Positions 41,990-49,869 of a stretch of DNA of 64,000 nucleotides are shown here, one piece after another. Within the stretch, counting starts at the first letter, position 1, and each line of letters opens with the position of its first letter. The position numbers and the translations under genes were made by a program. The notes beneath the pieces were generated by a model. The model saw only the letters and a program-made list of their open reading frames with translations. It did not search any database and was not told the DNA's origin. The stretch comes from Alphaproteobacteria bacterium (GTDB lineage: Bacteria; Pseudomonadota; Alphaproteobacteria; GCA-2731375): the NCBI GenBank assembly GCA_965225945.1, contig CBDDBZ010000035.1, forward strand, positions 64,001 to 128,000, in the 5' to 3' direction.

Positions 41990-42190
41990 ATGGCCTTGGG
42001 GACGATAACGGTCGCGCGGCGGCCCCGGCCCGACGAGACTTACGTCATCGTCGCCTGCGAGACGGGACGCGAGGGCTGCAAGCTCCTGGCCGAGGCGGCA
42101 ATCCGAGACACGGACGGCGCCACCCTCGCGGTCGCCAAGGGCACCTGGATCCTGGTCGTGCGCGAAGTCCAACTCGACGCGGCGCCCTGA
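41990..42190 (+). pseudogene. C-terminal half of a hotdog-fold (PaaI-like thioesterase) protein
   Basis: LGTITV..RP.P.E.YVIV....GREG.K......I.D.DG..LA.A.GTWI; N-terminal half absent. Confidence 0.45.
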
Positions 42191-42206
42191 GGCGTGCCCG
42201 ACGCCT

Positions 42207-43403
42207 TCACACCACGCCGCGCTGCTTGAGGCTCTGATAGTCGCGCTCGCCGACGTCGCAGAGCTCGGCCAGCAGACCTTCCGTGTGCTCGCCCAGCATC
42301 GGTGGCCGCTCGATGTCGGCGGGCGAGGCCGAGAGCTTTATCGGGCACCCCACCGTCTTGTAGAGGCCGCGCGTCGGGTACTCCAATTCCACGATCATGT
42401 CGCGCGCCTCAAGGTGCGGGTCGGACAGCACCTCGCCGGTGTCCTGGCAGGCGCCGGACGGCACCCCGGCGGCGCCCAGGACGCGCATCACCTCGTGCTT
42501 GTCGCGCCCGAGCGTCCACTCGGTGACGATTCGCTCCAGCGCCTCGCGGTTCTCCCAGCGCGAGTCCGGGTTCTGGAAGCGTTCGTCCTCGGCCAGCTCC
42601 GGCCGCTCGATGGCCTGGACGAAGGCGGGCCACATCTGCGGCTGGCAGAAAATGAAGACATGGTCGTTGGGACCGCCCGGGGCGCAGGGAAAAGTCGTGC
42701 CCGGCACCGTCTTGCCGAGCTGGTTGCCGTTGCGTCCCTGCACCTCGCCGTGGCGCTGGTGGTCGCGCAGGCTGACCCGCATCAGGTTGACCACCGCATC
42801 CTGCATCGCCACCTCGACATGCTGGCCCTCGCCGGTGGCATGGCGTTGCTGCAAGGCCGCCAGAACGCCGACCACCATGTGCATGCCGGTGCCGGAATCT
42901 CCGATCGAGGGCCAGACGTAGGTCGGCGGATTGCCCGGATGGCCGGTCGTCGTCATCGCCCCGCCCATGGCCTGGGCGATCGGCTCGAACGACTTGAAAT
43001 CGCTGTAGGGCCCGTAGGTGCCGAAGCCCTTGATGGTGGCGTAGATGAAGCCGGGGTTGATCTCCTTCAACACCTCGTAGCCGAGGCCGAGGCGGTCGAG
43101 GGCGCCGGGCGCGAAGTTTTCGACCAGCACGTCCGACTTGGCGACCAATTGCTTGAACAGCTCCTTGCCCTCGTCGGCCTTCAGGTTCAGCGTCAGGCTC
43201 CGCTTGTTGGCGTTGAAGGAGAGGAAGAACAGGCTGTCGCTCTCGGGGATGTCGCGCAGGTTGGTACGGGCGACGTCGCCCTTGCCCGGCTGCTCGAGCT
43301 TGATCACTTCGGCGCCGAGCCAGGCCAGGATCTGGGTGCAGGCGGGACCGGCCTGATTGTGCGTCAGGTCGATGATGCGAATTCCGTCCAGCGCCTTGCT
43401 CAT
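42207..43403 (-). CDS. class III CoA transferase, formyl-CoA transferase-like
   Basis: MSKALDGIRIIDLTH.QAGP.CTQ.LAW.GA, N.NKRS, ENF.PG, IKGFG, GDS.TGMH; GGAGG RBS. Confidence 0.88.
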   Translation of the reverse strand: MSKALDGIRIIDLTHNQAGPACTQILAWLGAEVIKLEQPGKGDVARTNLRDIPESDSLFFLSFNANKRSLTLNLKADEGKELFKQLVAKSDVLVENFAPGALDRLGLGYEVLKEINPGFIYATIKGFGTYGPYSDFKSFEPIAQAMGGAMTTTGHPGNPPTYVWPSIGDSGTGMHMVVGVLAALQQRHATGEGQHVEVAMQDAVVNLMRVSLRDHQRHGEVQGRNGNQLGKTVPGTTFPCAPGGPNDHVFIFCQPQMWPAFVQAIERPELAEDERFQNPDSRWENREALERIVTEWTLGRDKHEVMRVLGAAGVPSGACQDTGEVLSDPHLEARDMIVELEYPTRGLYKTVGCPIKLSASPADIERPPMLGEHTEGLLAELCDVGERDYQSLKQRGVV

Positions 43404-43476
43404 CTTCTTCCTCCCGCCTGTCAAACTCTCGCGAAACGCGGCCGGACGGTACCATGTCGCCACCCCGGCGGGCCAC

Positions 43477-44763
43477 TCAAGCCCAGGCGGCGACCCTCGG
43501 CGACGGCAGGATGGTGCCCGAAACCTCGCCGAAGCCGACCCGATGGCCCTCGCCCTGGCACCAGCCGGTGATGGTCACCGTGTCGCCGTCCTCCAGGAAC
43601 GTCCGCTCGCCACCACCCTCGAGGCGGAGCGGCGCCTGGCCGTTTCGCGTCAACTCCAGCAGGCTACCGAGGGAGTCCGGATCCGGCCCGCTGATGGTCC
43701 CGGAGCCCAGCAGATCACCCGGCGCCATGGCGCAGCCGCCGACCGCGTGGTGCGCGAGCTGCTGCGCGCCCGACCAATACATATGGCGGAAGTTGGTGCG
43801 GCAGATCACGCTTCCGCGCGATGCACCGGCCGGGCGAAGCGTGGTCTCCAGGTGGACGTCGAGGCCTCGTGGCTCCCCCTGGCGGAGGTAGGGCAGCGGT
43901 GGCGGTGCCTGCTCCGGGCCGGCCACGCGGAACGGCGCCAGCGCCTCAGCCGTCACCACCCAGGGCGAGATCGAGGTGGCGAAGACCTTGGACTGGAACG
44001 GCCCCAACGGCACGTATTCCCAGGTTTGAATATCGCGCGCGCTCCAATCGTTCAGCAGCACGTAGCCGAAGATCATCGCCTCGGCCTCGCCGAGGGTCAG
44101 CGGCCGGCCCATCGCGTTGCCGGTGCCGACCACGGCGCCCATCTCCAGCTCGATGTCGAGCTTGGCGCATGGCCCGAAGATCGGTGCCTCGGCCTCGGGT
44201 GGCTTGCTCTGGCCGAGCGGGCGGTGGATCGCGGTGCCGCTCGCGACGACGGTGCTGGCCCGGCCGTTGTAGCCGATCGGCAGATGCAGCCAGTTGGCGG
44301 GAAGCGCGTTCTCGGGCCCGCGAAACATCCGGCCGACGTTGCTGGCGTGCTCCTTGGAGGCATAGAAATCGGTGTAGCCGCCGACCTCGATCGGCAGGCG
44401 CAACCGCGCCTCGGGCGTCGGGACGAGCGCCCGGCCGCGCAGCGACTCGTCGTCCCGCAGGCGGTCGTTGTCGCAATCGAGCAGGTCCGCGACCGTGGCG
44501 CGGACCGAGGCCCAGACATGCGCGCCCCGGGCCATGAAGGCGTTGAGGCTGGCGCCCTCGAAGACCGCCTCGCCCGCGTCCACCAGGCCGGCCCGTTCCA
44601 ACACCGCGAGGTCGAGAATTTGCTCGCCGATGGCGATGCCGACGCGTGGCCCCGGCGCCGCCACCGTCTCGAAGACGCCAAGGGGAAGGTTCTGGATCGG
44701 AAAATGGCCTTCCGCGTCGTCGGCGCCGGCGACCAAACTCCGCCGTTCGGCGCCGATGCTCAC
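43477..44763 (-). CDS. fahA: fumarylacetoacetase
   Basis: FPIQNLP.G.F, YTDFYAS..HA.NVG, HLPIGYNGRAS, LD.ELE, NDWSARDIQ.WEYVPLGPF, GSGTISG. Confidence 0.95.
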   Translation of the reverse strand: MSIGAERRSLVAGADDAEGHFPIQNLPLGVFETVAAPGPRVGIAIGEQILDLAVLERAGLVDAGEAVFEGASLNAFMARGAHVWASVRATVADLLDCDNDRLRDDESLRGRALVPTPEARLRLPIEVGGYTDFYASKEHASNVGRMFRGPENALPANWLHLPIGYNGRASTVVASGTAIHRPLGQSKPPEAEAPIFGPCAKLDIELEMGAVVGTGNAMGRPLTLGEAEAMIFGYVLLNDWSARDIQTWEYVPLGPFQSKVFATSISPWVVTAEALAPFRVAGPEQAPPPLPYLRQGEPRGLDVHLETTLRPAGASRGSVICRTNFRHMYWSGAQQLAHHAVGGCAMAPGDLLGSGTISGPDPDSLGSLLELTRNGQAPLRLEGGGERTFLEDGDTVTITGWCQGEGHRVGFGEVSGTILPSPRVAAWA

Positions 44764-45902
44764 TCCGCCGCGGCCTTCCAGCTGTCGACATAGGCCTCGT
44801 TCTCGACGCCCGGGGGAAGCTCGCCCAAATCCAAGGCGTCGCGGGTGTCGATCATGACGGCGTATTCGTCGCTCACCGGCTTCGGCTGGGTGAACATGTT
44901 GCGGAGCGCCTTGGGATGCGGTCCGTGGGTGAAGCCGCAAGGATGGAAGGTCATCATCCCGGCCTCGATGCCGTCGCGAGAGAAGAAGTCGCCGGCGTGA
45001 TAGAACAACACCTCGTCATAGTCGTGATTGTCGTGGAAGAACGGCACCTTGAGCGCGCCCGGATCACTCTCGAAGGGGCGGGGTGCAAAGGTGCAGACGA
45101 CGAAGCGGTCGGCCATGAACGTGGTATGGGCCGAGGGCGGCAGGTGGTAGCGGTGGCTCGTCAACGGCCGGATATCACGAACATTGAGGCGGACCGGCGA
45201 GAGATCGCCCTTCCAACCCACCGCGTCGAGCGGATTGAAGGGGAAGGTGACGGTGCTGACGGCGTCGCGCCGCTTGATCCGGATCCGCCATTCTTCGTCG
45301 GCCGCCTTCCCGTCGCGCTGCGCCCGGAAGGCCTCGTCCAGCGCCGGACGCGCCAGGGTCGCGGGATCGAAGATCGCGTGCGCCCCCACCAGCCCCCTGT
45401 CGGGCAGGCCGTAGCTCGCATTGGTCGCCTCGATCATCAGCGCGCTCAGCGGCGAGGTGCATTCGAGCCGCCACATCGTCGCCCGGGGCAGCATGACGTA
45501 GTCGCCCACCTCGAGCGCGAGATGGCCGAAATCGCAAAACAAATCGGCCGCGCCCTGGTGGATGAACAGCAGATCGTCGCCGTCGCCGTTCCGGGCCAGG
45601 TGGTCCATCCGCTCCGGCGCGCGCCAGAAGCGGATTTTGCAATGGGCGTTGTGGAGCACGGTGGGCGCGTCCCAGGGCGAGGCTTCGATGCGGTTCAGCG
45701 CGCATAGATCGAAGGCCCGGGGTCGAAGCGGCCCCTCCCAATCGATCCAGCCGGTCGGCGGGTTGCGGTGATAGATATGCGCCGCCGGGCCGAAGAATCC
45801 GTTCTTGCTGATTTCCCTCTCGTAGGTGCCCTCGGGCAAATCGGCATGGGCCTGGCGGGTCGCCTCGCCCTCGACATGATGGATGGCAATGGGGTTCTTC
45901 AT
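44760..45902 (-). CDS. hmgA: homogentisate 1,2-dioxygenase (short bacterial type)
   Basis: GFFGP, RN.DGD, PLDAVGW.G, HLPPSAH.TF, PFFH.N.DYDEVLFYH.G.FFSR, HGPHP, AVMIDT. Confidence 0.92.
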   Translation of the reverse strand: MKNPIAIHHVEGEATRQAHADLPEGTYEREISKNGFFGPAAHIYHRNPPTGWIDWEGPLRPRAFDLCALNRIEASPWDAPTVLHNAHCKIRFWRAPERMDHLARNGDGDDLLFIHQGAADLFCDFGHLALEVGDYVMLPRATMWRLECTSPLSALMIEATNASYGLPDRGLVGAHAIFDPATLARPALDEAFRAQRDGKAADEEWRIRIKRRDAVSTVTFPFNPLDAVGWKGDLSPVRLNVRDIRPLTSHRYHLPPSAHTTFMADRFVVCTFAPRPFESDPGALKVPFFHDNHDYDEVLFYHAGDFFSRDGIEAGMMTFHPCGFTHGPHPKALRNMFTQPKPVSDEYAVMIDTRDALDLGELPPGVENEAYVDSWKAAAE

Positions 45903-45994
45903 CGTCGCTCTCCCGAAGTCGGCCGCGCCGTGCTTATGGTAGCATGCTCGGATCGTCTCGAGGCGACCCGCCGGACCCCTCGACTCAGGCTCCG

Positions 45995-47479
45995 TCAGTC
46001 CCTCCGGTCGCCGACGGCGCCGCGGTCGATCTGGTCGCGCTCGATCGATTCGAACAGTGCCTTGAAGTTACCCTCGCCGAAACCCTCGTCGCCCTTGCGC
46101 TGGATGAACTCGAAGAACACCGGCCCCAGCAGGGTCTGGGAGAAGATCTGCAGCAGCAGCCGGACGTCGCCCCCCATGGTGGTGCCGTCGAGCAGGATGC
46201 CGCGCGATTTCAAGCCCGCCACCGGTTCGCCGTGGCCGGGCAGGCGCTGCTCCAGCATGGCGTAGTAGGCATCGGACGGCGCCGGCATGAAGTCCAAGCC
46301 CGCCGAGCGCAACCTGTCGACGGTCGCCGGCAGGTCCTCGCAAGAAAGCGCGATGTGCTGAATGCCCTCGCCGTTGAAGGCCAGAAGAAACTCCTCGATC
46401 TGCCCCCCGCCGGCCCCAGATTCCTCGTTCAGGGGAATGCGGATCTTGCCGTCGGGCGCGGTGAGTGCTTTGCTGGTCAGGCCGGTGTATTCGCCCGAGA
46501 TGTCGAAATGGCGCAGTTCGCGGAAACCGAACAGATGCTCGTAGAAGCCCGCCCAATGCGCCATGCGGCCGCGATAGACATTGTGGGTCAGGTGATCGAT
46601 GAGCTTCAGGCCGTGCCCAACGGGGCGGCGCTCGGCCCCCTCGAGCCAACGAAAATCGATGTCGTAGATCGACGCGCCGTCCTCGAAGCGGTCGATCAGA
46701 TAGATCGACGCCCCGCCGATGCCCCGAATTGCCGGCAGCTTCAACTCCATGGGCCCGGTCGGAATGTCGATCGGTTGCGCGCCGAGCTCGATCGCCCGGG
46801 CGTGGGCGAGGTGCGAATCACCGACCCGGAAGGCCAGGCCACAGGCCGAAGGTCCGTGCTCGTCGGCGAAATAGGCGGCGAGCGACCGTGGTGCCTTGTT
46901 GACGATGAAGTTGATCCCGCCCTGACGCCAAAGATCGACCTCCTTCGAGCGATGGCGTGCGACCTTGGCAAAACCGAGCGTCGTGAAGGCTTGCTCGAGA
47001 AGTTCCGGGTTCGGTGCCGCGAACTCGACGAACTCGAAGCCCTCGAGCCCCATCGGGTTGTCCACCGTCGGCGCGGGCCGCGCGCCGACGGCGGAACTCG
47101 AGACGCTCGCCACCCCGGCTTCCGCCGCGTCGGTTTCCAGATCGATGAAATGCACGCCGAACTGATTGGCGGCCCGGTAGGCGACCTCGCACCACCTCGG
47201 TCCACTTTGGCCGAAATCGAGCTCAAACCGGTCGGGCACCTCCGACACCGTTTCGAAAAACAACCTGGCGCCGCTCCGCGACAGGTTTCGTACGGTGCAG
47301 TCGATCACGCTCTGGCGATCGTTGTAGATCACCTTGGCGGCAAGCAGCGTGCGTCGGCGACGGTCCGCCAACATTCGGCGCTCGTCGCCGCCGCGCTGCT
47401 CCGTCTCGGTCGGCGCCTCGACGATACGCCGCTCCTCACGGGCTCTGCGTTCCTCGGCTCGCCGACGTTTCTCGATCAC
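45995..47479 (-). CDS. hppD: PilZ-domain::4-hydroxyphenylpyruvate dioxygenase fusion
   Basis: HPPD 45995-47065 ([45 protein letters not shown]); in-frame PilZ-like domain ~47147-47374 ([12 protein letters not shown]...GVHF); GTG start at 47479 after GGGAG/GAGG. Confidence 0.88.
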
Positions 47480-47586
47480 GCCTCGCTCCCTATCTCGCTC
47501 TCGGCGTCGGCTCGTCCCGGCATTCGACGATATCCGAGCACCACGCGCGTTTCGCGACCGGTGCGCCTCGCCAAGCGCCATATTCG

Positions 47587-47610
47587 ATTGTTGTTACGAA
47601 ATCCAACAAT
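47587..47610. promoter_or_regulatory. inverted repeat ATTGTTG-N10-CAACAAT upstream of PilZ-hppD
   Basis: perfect 7-bp arms, flanked by TCG/TCGA. Confidence 0.45.
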
Positions 47611-47764
47611 TCGAGCATGGCGATAACGGAATAGACTCACGGCGTAACCATATAATATTTGTGCCTATTAAGGAACCCGCGCTCAGACGATTTCATTGGT
47701 TTTGAAATCGATATCAAGACATGTTGAAAGAATAGAGTCGCCGACACTTCAATTCGTTTTGCCG

Positions 47765-47780
47765 TTAAGGTGTCATTAAC
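47765..47780 (+). promoter_or_regulatory. CtrA binding site
   Basis: TTAA-GGTGTCA-TTAAC, an exact match to TTAA-N7-TTAA(C); unlikely by chance in GC-rich DNA. Confidence 0.75.
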
Positions 47781-47798
47781 CCATCAAGTGGCGGGAGC

Positions 47799-48335
47799 GT
47801 GGTCCGGACCACGGGGCAGCAAGCGTGGGAGACGAACACAGATGACGGCGATCAAGGGTTTTGCGATAGGCGCGATCGCAATGGGAACCATGTCGACGGC
47901 GGCAAGCTGAACGGCGCCAATGGTCATGGGCTGCATCACGGCACCGGCGGCAATGGCGTCGCGATGCCACCGACGCATCTGGTTTCGACGAACGACCGCT
48001 TGGAAAACCACCGGGATCCCAGCCGCCCACGACTGATCGACTCGATTGTCGATACCCGGCAGGCGCCGGTCGAGCGGACACCGCCACGGGCGTTGCGCCC
48101 GAGTCCCCGGCGCTGGACGGTAACCGGCGGCGCGGGCGATGCCGAGCAGAATCTCGACCGGCAGGCGACGGACGACCCGATCAAGCTGGTGCAAAAGCTC
48201 AATCAGGCGATGAACGCGGCGGATCGGATCGGCCTTGTCGTCAAACCGAACATCTCGACCGCGACGTCGCAGTTCGGTGGCACAGGCTCGGCCGGCCACA
48301 TGGCGAGCATCAAGGTCTCTCGCAAGCTCTGCTAG
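47799..48335 (+). CDS. hypothetical protein
   Basis: ORF with GGGAG before GTG; low-complexity N-terminus, compact C-terminal domain (LVQKLNQAM..A...GL.V...V.RKL); true start uncertain. Confidence 0.6.
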   Translation: MVRTTGQQAWETNTDDGDQGFCDRRDRNGNHVDGGKLNGANGHGLHHGTGGNGVAMPPTHLVSTNDRLENHRDPSRPRLIDSIVDTRQAPVERTPPRALRPSPRRWTVTGGAGDAEQNLDRQATDDPIKLVQKLNQAMNAADRIGLVVKPNISTATSQFGGTGSAGHMASIKVSRKLC

Positions 48336-48550
48336 AGCGTGCGACGGCCCTCACGAACAATTCTCCGCGCGGTCGCCCGCGACGGGGCGCGAGCGGGCAA
48401 ATGCCCGCTTGGCTTCGGTGCGCGCGTCTACAGGGTGGACGGTAATCGGCCTTGTCGTCAAACCGAACATCTCGACCGCGACGTCGCAGTTCGGTGGCAC
48501 AGGCTCGGCCGGCCACATGGCGAGCATCAAGGTCTCTCGCAAGCTCTGCT
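48228..48550 (+). repeat. exact 106-bp direct repeat (48228-48333 and 48445-48550)
   Basis: the second copy duplicates the 3' end of the upstream ORF up to the T of its stop codon; 111-bp spacer. Confidence 0.93.
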
Positions 48551-48597
48551 CGGGGGAGCGGCGCGGTCGGGACATCCGTCGATGGTATCACAAGGAG

Positions 48598-49869
48598 CTA
48601 CAGGATATCCGCCTTGGCGTACCAGGGCTCCGGGACCAAACTTTCGATCCCCAGCCATTCCGCTAGTTCGCGCGCCATGGTGGGACCACTACGGTCGCGC
48701 TCGGTGTCGATTTCCACGGCGACCGTCATGCCGGCGCGCAGCTTCGGCTGCCCTTCGGCCTGCTCCAGCTTGATCCTGACCGGCACCCGCTGCACCACCT
48801 TGACCCAGTTGCCCGAGGCGTTCTGCGGCGGCAGGAGAGAGAACTCGGCGCCGGTCGCGGGCGCGATGCTGTCGACCGTGCCGGTCCAGGTGACGTCGGG
48901 ATAGGAATCGACGACGAAATTGACCTTTTGGCCGATCACGACGTGCGTGAGCTGGGTTTCCTTCAGGTTCGCCTCGACCCAGGGCCGGTCGACCTGCACC
49001 AGCGAGAAGAGCGCATCTCCCTCTTCCACATACTCGCCCGCCTGCAGTTTGATGTTGGAGACGATGCCGTCGGCCGGCGCCATCACGTTGGTGCGATCGA
49101 AGTCGAGCTCGGCCCGATCCAGGGCGGCCAGCGCGCGCAGGAACTTCGGGTGATCCCCTACCTTGACCTTGGCGTTGCCGCCGAGCTCGGCTAACAGCAT
49201 GCGATTGCGCTCGCGCACCGTGTCGACCTCGCGCTTGGCCATCTCGGACAGATGCTCGGCCTGGTCGAGCTTGACGTTGGTGCCGACGCCGCGCCGGGTC
49301 AGGGTCTGCTGGCGCTTGTGCTCGGCGTCGAGATAGCGGACTCGTTCCTGCAATTGGTCGACCTGTCGGGCACCCGCGCGAAAGGCCGCCCGCATCGACT
49401 CGATCTCCGCGCGCACGCGATCGAGTTCCGCCTTTGCCTCCTGGATCTCGATCTCGAAGGGGCGGGGATCGATGCGGAACAGCACCTGTCCCCCGTTGAC
49501 CTGTTCGTTCTCGCGCACGTCGATGTCGATGATGCGGCCCCGCACATCGGTGCTGATGGCGATGACGTCGGCCTTCACATAGGCGTTTTCCGTCGTCACC
49601 CAACGCATGCTCTCGCCCCAGATCAGGGCGCCGTAGAACGCCGCCCAGAGCGGCAGGAGCACCATCAACACGAGGCGAATCAGCGGCCGAAAGAAGCGCA
49701 GGGTATGGCGCATCTTGTGCCGCGACCGGCTGGCCGTCGGTCCCTCGGAACGCGCCGGCGCGTCCGCGTCGGCCGCGAATTCCGGCGCGACCGGCTCGGC
49801 CGCGCTGTCCTGGTCGTCGTCCACCACCGCGACCGGAGCATCGCTCTTCCTCGCGGCCGGATCAGCCAT
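48598..49869 (-). CDS. HlyD/EmrA-family membrane fusion protein
   Basis: TENAYV, LF.IDP.PF, AP.DG.V, WVEAN.KETQL, GAEFSLLPPQNASGNWVKVVQRVPVRI. Confidence 0.93.
   Translation of the reverse strand: MADPAARKSDAPVAVVDDDQDSAAEPVAPEFAADADAPARSEGPTASRSRHKMRHTLRFFRPLIRLVLMVLLPLWAAFYGALIWGESMRWVTTENAYVKADVIAISTDVRGRIIDIDVRENEQVNGGQVLFRIDPRPFEIEIQEAKAELDRVRAEIESMRAAFRAGARQVDQLQERVRYLDAEHKRQQTLTRRGVGTNVKLDQAEHLSEMAKREVDTVRERNRMLLAELGGNAKVKVGDHPKFLRALAALDRAELDFDRTNVMAPADGIVSNIKLQAGEYVEEGDALFSLVQVDRPWVEANLKETQLTHVVIGQKVNFVVDSYPDVTWTGTVDSIAPATGAEFSLLPPQNASGNWVKVVQRVPVRIKLEQAEGQPKLRAGMTVAVEIDTERDRSGPTMARELAEWLGIESLVPEPWYAKADIL

Follow-up and report, generated by a model that had tools for sequence, protein, structure and literature searches.

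To what extent can a lifestyle signal act directly on a catabolic enzyme? PilZ receptors control motors, polysaccharide synthases, chemoreceptors, and transcription, and PilZ domains bind c-di-GMP through two motifs, RxxxR and [D/N]hSxxG. HPPD makes homogentisate, and pyomelanin is an extracellular, redox-active, protective pigment. In the window, that is, the whole stretch of 64,000 nucleotides analyzed, one gene joins a PilZ domain to an HPPD, and it raises the question of whether this fusion is genuine and whether c-di-GMP gates the enzyme through it. The gene, its parts, and the genes that follow it are listed below.

45995..47479, minus strand: whole PilZ::HPPD coding sequence, 494 aa plus stop (frame listing, Pfam, orthologue alignment)
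47381..47479, minus strand: N-terminal Glu/Arg-rich segment with repeated ERR units, residues 1-33
47138..47380, minus strand: PilZ domain, residues 34-114 (Pfam PF07238, structure model, dN/dS)
47351..47380, minus strand: Arg-rich loop, residues 34-43, occupying the RxxxR place (alignment A3)
47270..47287, minus strand: second c-di-GMP motif, NLSRSG, residues 65-70, fitting [D/N]hSxxG
47066..47137, minus strand: Ala/Ser/Pro-rich linker, residues 115-138, about 24 aa
45995..47065, minus strand: HPPD part, residues 139-494, complete save for the usual initial M-x-D-L-F
44760..45902, minus strand: divergent HmgA-like cupin, 380 aa, 92 nt downstream of the fusion, with GGGAGAG ahead of its ATG
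43477..44763, minus strand: fahA (fumarylacetoacetase), TIGR01266 555.1 bits against a cut-off of 375.3
42207..43403, minus strand: Family III CoA-transferase, formyl-CoA-transferase-like, about 73 nt downstream of fahA

The fused gene lies in a single, stop-free frame (45995..47581, minus strand) of 528 aa when counted from the first ATG. The GTG at 47479 is the likely start, giving a product of 494 aa, because the orthologues in two other species of the genus (G001 and G002) align there and GGGAG stands at 47486-47490, 6 nt upstream; a sequence-only reading of this DNA had likewise noted a ribosome-binding site ahead of the PilZ part. In both orthologues the aligned start is an ATG, preceded by GGAG and GAGGAG, respectively, and an entry in the protein collection (P0010) is identical to the window fusion across all 494 aa. 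The domain scan proposed by that reading places PilZ and the two glyoxalase families in the same protein, and its claim of one uninterrupted ORF is borne out: PF07238 matches residues 77-152 (25.7 bits against a cut-off of 22.5; 29.0 bits in the genome-wide scan), Glyoxalase_5 residues 174-310 (205.9 bits), and Glyoxalase residues 328-443, all in the 528-aa numbering, the latter two being the two VOC barrels of HPPD, while the NCBIfam equivalog TIGR01263 (4HPPD) scores 375.9 bits against a cut-off of 277 over profile positions 2-352 of 353. The 494-aa protein reads, in order, as a Glu/Arg-rich N-terminus, PilZ, a variable linker, and a complete HPPD. The N-terminal segment changes quickly, with 15-16 of its 33 residues shared between species and a dN/dS of 0.37-0.64, and its ERR units are also present in stand-alone PilZ relatives.

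A chimeric join or a missed stop, which the earlier reading had listed among the possible flaws in the linker, is refuted in practice. Its one foothold is P0016, an assembly of a near-identical strain in which the frame breaks directly after VDNP. Against it, the junction is identical in contigs from three runs of three studies, an RNA library included: X4 (2581 nt) and X5 (1326 nt), which come from runs of other studies and are flagged as near-identical and possibly the source of this DNA, show 0 differences in 46700-47700, and the RNA-library contig X10 (639 nt, 46889-47527) spans PilZ, linker, and HPPD, also with 0 differences; X12, from a fourth run, covers the PilZ part plus most of the linker. 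Furthermore, 14 member sequences in three 90% clusters carry the fusion, on contigs of up to 9 Mb, and the orthologous fusions of G001 and G002 show about 80% identity, their linkers differing in length but staying in frame. Each of the three species sampled in the genus (G000, G001, and G002) has the architecture, which has been retained over a dS of about 0.7-1.25. It is a genuine, conserved, and selected translational fusion.

Outside the genus, the domain-architecture search suggested earlier returned no further case: the fusion is missing from 30 further genomes of the order and from 114 others of the class that encode an HPPD, and a search of 5.8 billion proteins found no PilZ-HPPD fusion beyond this genus. 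The sister genera carry an unfused HPPD with no PilZ of this type adjoining, so the pathway does not generally require the two to be coupled, a point against gating. DNA of the genus is found in sponge- and sediment-labelled runs. The belief that no such fusion had been described agrees with the literature as represented by titles and the opening parts of abstracts, where no description of a PilZ-HPPD fusion was found among the co-mentions, and with the Galperin & Chou PilZ survey preprint (10.1101/814665), in which "dioxygenase" has 0 occurrences.

A single frame may nonetheless yield two products, with most HPPD translated separately from a start inside the frame, either the GTG at V139 or the ATG at M143, and the fusion as the minor form. 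The window does hold both codons in frame: the GTG at residue 139 and, within NPMG, a conserved ATG with a weak GGTGG 9 nt ahead. However, at the position of the GTG the orthologues in G001 and G002 carry Ala and Pro codons, and ahead of the NPMG ATG the three species share no conserved Shine-Dalgarno-like sequence, in keeping with the earlier remark that the HPPD part has no obvious site of its own. Unfused HPPDs, moreover, begin 4-5 residues ahead of (D/E)NPMG and not at its Met, and the linker is in frame in all variants except the damaged P0016. Such an arrangement is very improbable.

What kind of PilZ domain has been joined to the enzyme? Structure prediction, another of the steps suggested from the sequence, models residues 20-125 (pLDDT 78.4) as six strands and one C-terminal helix, the PilZ barrel. 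By VIA, the model superimposes best on the BcsA PilZ domain (Z 10.6, rmsd 2.1 Å across 72 residues), and every one of the 26 highest-ranked rows is a PilZ domain, most of them solved with c-di-GMP; the best Foldseek E-value is only 2.2e-3. By sequence, phmmer collects 1965 relatives, the best 150 of which are almost all PilZ proteins of 80-200 aa with 27-57% identity. Among solved PilZ chains the best sequence match has an E-value of 1.4, the subfamily being without a solved structure. Between species the PilZ part has a dN/dS of 0.12-0.19 and is under purifying selection. The fused domain belongs with the small stand-alone, single-domain PilZ receptors, and it is set before the cell's only HPPD. 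The organism has c-di-GMP signaling, its genome holding 15 GGDEF matches and 12 other PilZ matches.

The two c-di-GMP motifs fare unequally. In a canonical receptor, RxxxR lies in the N-terminal loop some 20 residues ahead of [D/N]hSxxG, which is placed where strand 2 ends. The second, described earlier as D/NxSxxG, is present as NLSRSG; its N, L, S, and G are invariant across the five aligned fusion rows (three distinct sequences), and in alignment A3 G70 never varies, while S67 reaches a conservation of at least 90%. The RxxxR claimed alongside it falls away, the RRRRT of the loop containing no such motif. R35 (at least 90% conserved) and R41 (invariant) do align with the two motif arginines of the subfamily, yet they are separated by 5 residues in the window protein as against 3 residues in 101 of the 117 A3 rows. 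The longer spacer occurs in 6 of the 117 rows, namely, the three fusions plus P0017, P0018, and P0030. Four of the five distinct fusion variants lack R-x-x-x-R in the loop, and in G002 the final arginine of the run is replaced by Leu, both of which count against gating by c-di-GMP. The fifth, the natural variant P0005 of the G001 cluster, has the canonical register R-SAD-R-R-R-T. Binding of c-di-GMP by the PilZ part is plausible and, given the 5-residue spacing, less certain than the sequence-only reading assumed.

These departures bear on a different view of the module, in which PilZ is a ligand-independent or other-ligand adaptor that sets the localisation, partner, or oligomer state of HPPD and does not read c-di-GMP. 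The absence of strict RxxxR and a loop two residues longer than in those 101 relatives are in line with it; purifying selection on PilZ would be equally expected; and according to the survey, c-di-GMP is not bound by PilZ domains that lack the motifs, and even members of a single genus can differ through loss of binding (10.1101/814665). What speaks for a retained ligand site is that NLSRSG is intact and invariant, that both motif arginines stand in their aligned columns flanked by extra arginines, that P0005 keeps canonical spacing, and that P0017 and P0018, the nearest stand-alone PilZ proteins, have the same loop form, so that the long Arg loop looks like a subfamily trait and not decay. 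We regard such an adaptor as unlikely. We know of no c-di-GMP binding assay for any relative in this subfamily, which also weighs against a gating model.

The enzyme half shares 67-75% identity with its unfused counterparts in related genomes, evolves at a dN/dS of 0.10-0.13, and is modeled with a pLDDT mostly of 80-97 in the full-length prediction. Among 44 aligned HPPDs, neither H375 nor E457 varies, and the conservation of H296 is at least 90% (494-aa numbering). The window protein has all three, so the His-His-Glu set named earlier is kept, these being the residues that we take to be the iron ligands by analogy with the P. fluorescens and plant enzymes. No other HPPD in the genome passes the cut-off. 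In two assemblies of near-identical strains the HPPD part is damaged, by the frame break of P0016 and by H296K in P0002, and both count against gating.

Between the halves lies the Ala/Ser/Pro linker recognized earlier. It differs by 3 codons in frame between species, with 7-8 of 21 residues identical, has a dN/dS of 0.39-0.87, and falls below a pLDDT of 50 in the full-length model, in which the PilZ part itself reaches only 33-51, so that its placement relative to HPPD is not informative, a further point against the gating model. A long, fast-evolving, low-confidence linker gives no sign of a fixed interface, as would be the case if PilZ bound c-di-GMP with an output other than HPPD, serving as a co-expressed or tethered receptor for another target, or with HPPD as an abundance-controlled carrier or c-di-GMP sink; relatives of this PilZ do function as stand-alone proteins of 80-200 aa. 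This is decidedly improbable, considering that the covalent tie to the only HPPD has been kept over the divergence given above and that covalent PilZ-enzyme fusions such as BcsA control their fused enzyme (PMC12564702).

The fused gene stands at the head of a tyrosine/homogentisate catabolic row of PilZ::hppD, the hmgA-like gene, fahA, and perhaps the CoA-transferase. The hmgA annotation given to the second gene does not stand: it scores 73 bits against TIGR01015, far under the cut-off of 510.75 and over profile positions 129-424 only. With Pfam matches to HgmA_N (50 bits) and HgmA_C (19.4 bits) and homogentisate dioxygenase 9pz4_A as its best solved relative (E 1.5e-9), it is, by profile, a distant HmgA relative and not a canonical HmgA, and it adjoins HPPD in 10 genomes. 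The assignment of fahA downstream on the same strand is sound; its likely GTG start overlaps the stop of the HmgA-like gene as GTGA, and the G002 orthologue has 422 aa. The CoA-transferase (PF02515, 389 bits; NF003809, 466 bits against a cut-off of 442), whose start at 43403 is inferred from 398-aa orthologues, also follows the fusion locus in G001 and G002 and possibly belongs to the same operon. The maiA gene is located elsewhere in the genome.

Taken as a whole, the fusion suggests, from its sequence, a lifestyle signal acting directly on HPPD. The best explanation, which we adopt tentatively as a working model at somewhat less than an even chance, is an HPPD gated by c-di-GMP through its fused PilZ domain. 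The original coupling idea is supported in part, by the real and conserved fusion, the c-di-GMP enzymes, and the sole HPPD; its RxxxR and a canonical HmgA do not stand. In this working model, c-di-GMP would be bound by the PilZ module through its Arg-rich N-terminal loop and NLSRSG; the ligand would order the Arg loop and shift the PilZ barrel, itself tethered by the flexible 24-aa linker to the N-terminal barrel of HPPD; and the output of HPPD would be altered via active-site access, oligomer assembly, or stability. Homogentisate formation would then track the c-di-GMP level, feeding Tyr/Phe catabolic flux or pyomelanin spill-over. We infer the binding of c-di-GMP, its effect on HPPD, and the direction of that effect alike. 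The fuller proposal, that c-di-GMP allosterically switches a soluble catabolic dioxygenase on or off through a lengthened Arg loop so that the motile/sessile decision sets homogentisate output, is rather doubtful.

How does such an arrangement compare with known systems? The nearest parallel is the BcsA cellulose synthase, in which PilZ is likewise covalently joined to the enzyme that it gates, a glycosyltransferase, and whose PilZ domain (9fnn_A) is the best structural match at a sequence identity of only 18%. BcsA is, however, a membrane glycosyltransferase with a C-terminal PilZ and a canonical RxxxR, whereas the fusion has an N-terminal PilZ, a flexible 24-aa linker, a soluble non-haem-iron dioxygenase, and a 5-residue Arg spacer. 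YcgR, MapZ, Alg44, MrkH, and PlzA share the same fold (Z 7.3-8.8) and are c-di-GMP receptors that alter the activity of a partner, but their targets are motors, methyltransferases, polymerases, or DNA, mostly in trans, and we know of none of the five joined to a catabolic enzyme. The stand-alone PilZ proteins (consensus ERRxxxRxRTLK...C.VRNLSxxGA), the nearest relatives in sequence, have the fold elements and the second motif in common with the fusion; unlike it, they are unfused or lie C-terminal to REC or REC-GGDEF (P0086, P0090), and among the best 150 representatives none is of about 490 aa or HPPD-bearing. Unfused bacterial HPPDs of the P. fluorescens type (TIGR01263) have both barrels and the His/His/Glu positions, while the fusion has 138 extra N-terminal residues, with the linker in place of M-x-D-L-F.

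Although the fusion is restricted to a single genus and c-di-GMP binding and regulation are putative, the locus serves as a natural "Rosetta stone" that names HPPD as a probable c-di-GMP target. If the model is true, c-di-GMP would directly control a central catabolic enzyme, extending the signal into primary metabolism and pigment formation, and the motile/sessile decision would balance tyrosine catabolism against pyomelanin; PilZ control of an enzyme would then have its first example beyond polysaccharide synthesis, and the R-x5-R loop would be a working variant of RxxxR. Both halves are easily assayed, by nucleotide binding, HPPD kinetics, and culture browning, and since spacers of 3 and 5 residues coexist in one genus, the fusions provide a natural test of how variable the RxxxR loop can be.

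A single open frame on the minus strand (45995..47581; 528 aa counted from its first ATG) joins a PilZ domain to a complete hydroxyphenylpyruvate dioxygenase (HPPD), as the sequence-only reading had claimed of an uninterrupted PilZ-HPPD gene. Its likely start was set at the GTG at 47479, which has GGGAG 6 nt 5′ of it, on the basis of this upstream sequence and of alignment with the orthologues of the other two sampled species of the genus, G001 and G002, where the aligned start is an ATG preceded by GGAG and GAGGAG, respectively. The resulting 494-aa product, whose numbering is used unless the 528-aa form is stated, is identical to protein P0010 of the public collection and comprises four parts.

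Layout of the fused protein (494-aa form, minus strand)
Residues 1-33: Glu/Arg-rich segment with repeated ERR units
Residues 34-114: PilZ domain
Residues 115-138: linker, Ala/Ser/Pro-rich
Residues 139-494: complete HPPD

The Pfam scan that had been proposed recovers PilZ (25.7 bits against a cut-off of 22.5) together with Glyoxalase_5 (205.9 bits) and Glyoxalase (55.8 bits) in the HPPD part, which also scores 375.9 bits on the NCBIfam equivalog TIGR01263 (4HPPD; cut-off 277), covering profile positions 2-352 of 353. Since unfused HPPDs (34 loci) start with M-x-D-L-F, 4-5 residues ahead of (D/E)NPMG, the fused enzyme is without only this short start. The His-His-Glu site described earlier is intact: H296, H375 and E457, which we take to be the iron ligands from the P. 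fluorescens and plant enzymes, are all present in the window's protein; across 44 aligned HPPDs, H375 and E457 show no variation, and conservation of H296 reaches at least 90%. A ribosome-binding site ahead of the HPPD part had been found wanting, and indeed no Shine-Dalgarno-like sequence is conserved there in the window, G001 and G002; the other two species lack the GTG that encodes residue 139 in the window.

The fusion is confirmed as genuine, conserved and under selection. Among 41 related genomes, matches spanning the full length (residues 32 to 518 or 528 of the query) occur in the window's own genome (G000), G001 and G002, with 75-80% identity overall among the three orthologues, and all other HPPD matches begin at residue 157 at least of the 528-aa query. 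When a collection of 5.8 billion proteins was searched with the N-terminal 175 residues, proteins of 290-924 aa yielded three clusters only, all carrying PilZ and HPPD Pfam domains, with 2, 5 and 7 member sequences on contigs reaching 9 Mb. The stretch is present, whole or in part, in 20 of the 24 public sequencing runs listed (11 studies; runs with a share below 0.2 were left out of habitat claims). Contigs from two runs, X4 (2581 nt) and X5 (1326 nt), both flagged as possible sources of the window DNA itself, span 46700-47700, and a contig from an RNA library, X10 (639 nt; DNA carry-over possible), equals 46889-47527, running from 5′ of the start through PilZ and linker into HPPD. All three cross the PilZ-linker-HPPD junction, which had been singled out for checking, with 0 differences. 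The X10 contig ends at 47527, 48 nt 5′ of the GTG, a possible hint of a short 5′ leader, although contigs cannot mark where transcripts end.

Pairwise dN/dS (Nei-Gojobori) among the three species (dS 0.66-1.48 over parts and species pairs)
PilZ part: 0.12-0.19
HPPD part: 0.10-0.13
Linker: 0.39-0.87
N-terminal segment: 0.37-0.64

Between species, linker length varies by three codons, in frame. This in-frame difference and the low dN/dS mark the PilZ part as a translated domain under selection, carried on a tolerant spacer. Two assemblies of near-identical strains carry HPPD lesions, possibly true loss-of-function alleles, possibly errors of assembly: in P0016 (276 aa) the frame is lost directly after VDNP, as if ~10 nt were missing (window ~47050-47060), and in P0002 a Lys replaces the presumed iron ligand His296 (window 46592-46594).

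In the genomes searched, the fusion is restricted to one genus. Across the order (33 genomes), the N-terminal 138 aa match the three species of the genus, the sole further match being weak and stand-alone, in genome G013. Of 401 genomes drawn from the class, 115 carry an HPPD (E <= 1e-60), and among the matches listed that of G000 alone starts at residue 1, the others at residue 112 at least. A contig scan with the N-terminal 170 aa, which relies on exact peptide patterns, is blind to diverged PilZ parts and missed even G001 and G002, returned 34 loci, all via the HPPD N-terminus (query residue 119 at least); the ESM Atlas, in which clusters of fewer than 50 members cannot appear, returned ordinary HPPD clusters only, all with score 0.76. 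With this genus-only distribution, the fusion looks like one event in the ancestor of the genus, within the genomes searched.

A stand-alone PilZ neighbour was considered as the source of the fusion and, for the genomes searched, rejected. The profile of A3, an alignment of the fusions' PilZ part with relatives (117 rows), has no match at E <= 0.01 in six-frame translations of 48 unfused-HPPD loci with flanks of 1.5 to 6 kb; the same profile found the three fusions only. Judged by this comparison, the fusion is not a merger of habitual neighbours within the genomes searched. Four long open frames 5′ of HPPD elsewhere were also set aside, as their sequence resembles noise from a wrong frame that runs into an ordinary HPPD start, and in a fifth (locus L068) the A3 profile gave no PilZ.

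The best-matching relatives of the PilZ part are mostly small proteins. HMMER with residues 25-118 against 1.84 billion representatives found 1965 relatives at E <= 0.001, and the best 150 of these are nearly all 80-200-aa proteins of 27-57% identity; five of the 150 exceed 250 aa, among them one REC-GGDEF-PilZ, one with a REC Pfam match only and one frame-broken copy of the fusion. A sequence search of solved structures gave nothing significant for this part (best overall E 0.25-0.52, not PilZ proteins; best solved PilZ chain VCA0042, E 1.4). In the structure prediction suggested by the sequence-only reading, AlphaFold on residues 20-125 with 117 aligned sequences yields a PilZ-like model of six strands and a C-terminal helix (mean pLDDT 78.4). 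Foldseek against the PDB returns weak E-values (best 2.2e-3) with top matches that are nearly all PilZ domains, and VIA places the model at Z 10.6 and rmsd 2.1 Å over 72 residues from the E. coli BcsA PilZ domain, its first 26 rows being all PilZ (PP4397, PA0012, MapZ, VCA0042, MrkH, MotI, PlzA, Alg44, YcgR).

Of the two c-di-GMP motifs, the second, [D/N]hSxxG, reads NLSRSG, with its defining positions invariant in the fusions. The first had been identified as an RxxxR within RRRRT, an assignment that fails: the arginines lie 5 residues apart in the fusions, as against 3 in 101 of the 117 rows of A3. A spacing of 5 occurs in six rows (the three fusions and the public proteins P0017, P0018 and P0030), the subfamily consensus is ERRxxxRxRTLK, and the final arginine of the run is Leu in G002. 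By regular expression, RxxxR stands 14-36 residues ahead of the second motif in 134 of 153 sequences; the failures include the fusions P0002, P0003 and P0004 plus P0016, P0017 and P0018, and in 7 of the 19 the second-motif pattern itself is unmatched. P0005, a natural variant of the G001 cluster, has R-SAD-R-R-R-T, the canonical register, and most other PilZ domains of the window's genome carry a canonical RxxxR. Both conserved arginines are retained in the fusions, with a loop 2 residues longer, as in the nearest stand-alone relatives, and we read this lengthened Arg loop as a probable subfamily variant, not decay. Because the first motif is non-canonical, we lowered our estimate of c-di-GMP binding by the PilZ part; we still consider such binding somewhat more likely than not. 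Ahead of the PilZ barrel, (D/E)RR units recur 5-7 residues apart in the fusion (47381-47479, minus strand) and in many stand-alone relatives (P0017, P0039, P0043, P0055, P0130); they might provide additional nucleotide contacts or form a helical arm.

The fused gene encodes the genome's only HPPD over cut-off and is flanked by the following genes.

43477-44763, minus strand: fahA
44760-45902, minus strand: HmgA-like cupin, 380 aa
47799-48335, plus strand: small gene, divergent from the fusion

The cupin gene begins 92 nt 3′ of the fusion with its own GGGAGAG-ATG, its stop codon and the likely GTG of fahA overlap in the sequence GTGA, and a family III CoA-transferase follows ~73 nt after fahA. 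The call of a downstream, same-strand fahA was sound (555 bits on TIGR01266). That of hmgA must be revised, the cupin scoring 73 bits on TIGR01015 against a cut-off of 510.75, and it is thus not a canonical HmgA; its match to the nearest solved homogentisate dioxygenase has E 1.5e-9. No better candidate and no canonical hmgA were found in the window's genome. Among the 14 related genomes with the short form, 10 have it immediately next to HPPD, and canonical hmgA is over cut-off in 1 of 41; the cupin is thus probably the lineage's homogentisate-cleaving enzyme, and may represent an uncharacterised homogentisate dioxygenase subfamily. Two maiA matches over cut-off lie elsewhere in the genome. 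No terminator-like site and no promoter match were detected in 42000-48700, nor an Rfam match at E <= 1 in 47400-48800, and thus no c-di-GMP riboswitch.

Gene order in G002 is that of the window, from MarR-HlyD through the ABC transporters. At the G001 locus (L072, G001:C4:114000-133900) there is no fahA, the CoA-transferase directly follows the hmgA-like gene, and other DNA takes the place of the upstream MarR-HlyD genes. In another genus, g5, an unfused HPPD ~70% identical to the window's occurs in 8 of 13 sampled genomes and an HmgA-like match at E <= 1e-10 in 0 of 13; the g5 enzyme may have a role outside complete tyrosine breakdown.

Taken together, the data establish that a PilZ domain under selection is permanently linked to the N-terminal barrel of the sole HPPD of the cell, in a genome where c-di-GMP signalling is present, given its 15 GGDEF and 13 PilZ matches. 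In the working we propose, the NLSRSG motif together with the Arg loop would form the binding site for c-di-GMP, with the loop becoming ordered on binding, as in known PilZ complexes. The re-positioned PilZ barrel could then alter HPPD activity, assembly or stability, in either direction. Pyomelanin forms spontaneously from homogentisate, and the catabolic branch after HPPD would proceed through the HmgA-like enzyme, MaiA and FahA; because HPPD feeds both, any shift of its output against that of the downstream enzymes would tip the balance between catabolism and pyomelanin. Such a c-di-GMP-gated HPPD, as the sequence-only reading envisaged, is plausible, a reading weakened by the non-canonical first motif. 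In the full-length AlphaFold model the PilZ part has pLDDT 33-51, since only 6 fusion rows cover PilZ, and prediction of a complex of the HPPD part with two c-di-GMP and the PilZ part scored 0.08 and 0.06 against a mark of 0.32, a result that favours neither side; both were run on P0002, the H296K variant of the window's protein. An alignment combining short PilZ proteins and HPPDs (A2) was discarded, the short PilZ rows being misplaced onto HPPD.

The nearest working analogue is BcsA, whose fused PilZ gates its enzyme; the fusion differs in its soluble dioxygenase, N-terminal PilZ, flexible linker and lengthened Arg loop. Known PilZ fusions include those with PilZN, PilZNR, HlyD, REC, GGDEF, EAL, HD-GYP, MCP, CheC and BcsA, according to the accessible portion of a PilZ survey preprint (10.1101/814665). 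In that portion and in the accessible portion of the review PMC12564702, "dioxygenase" has 0 occurrences. Likewise, the available texts on PilZ with hydroxyphenylpyruvate dioxygenase treat no such fusion, and those on c-di-GMP with pyomelanin and homogentisate treat no PilZ-HPPD protein. Within the literature searched on PilZ/enzyme fusions, c-di-GMP and pyomelanin, we thus found no description of a PilZ-HPPD fusion, in line with the earlier remark that none was known. Its novelty lies in a PilZ receptor joined to a new output enzyme.

The small divergent gene is present in all three species at 48% identity, with a well-conserved C-terminal 85 aa. It has no Pfam match, and the 1-kb spacer that holds it has no Rfam match. 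In the window, a second copy of the last 119 nt of the gene, stop included, lies 217 nt 3′ at 96% identity (48228-48346, 48445-48563).
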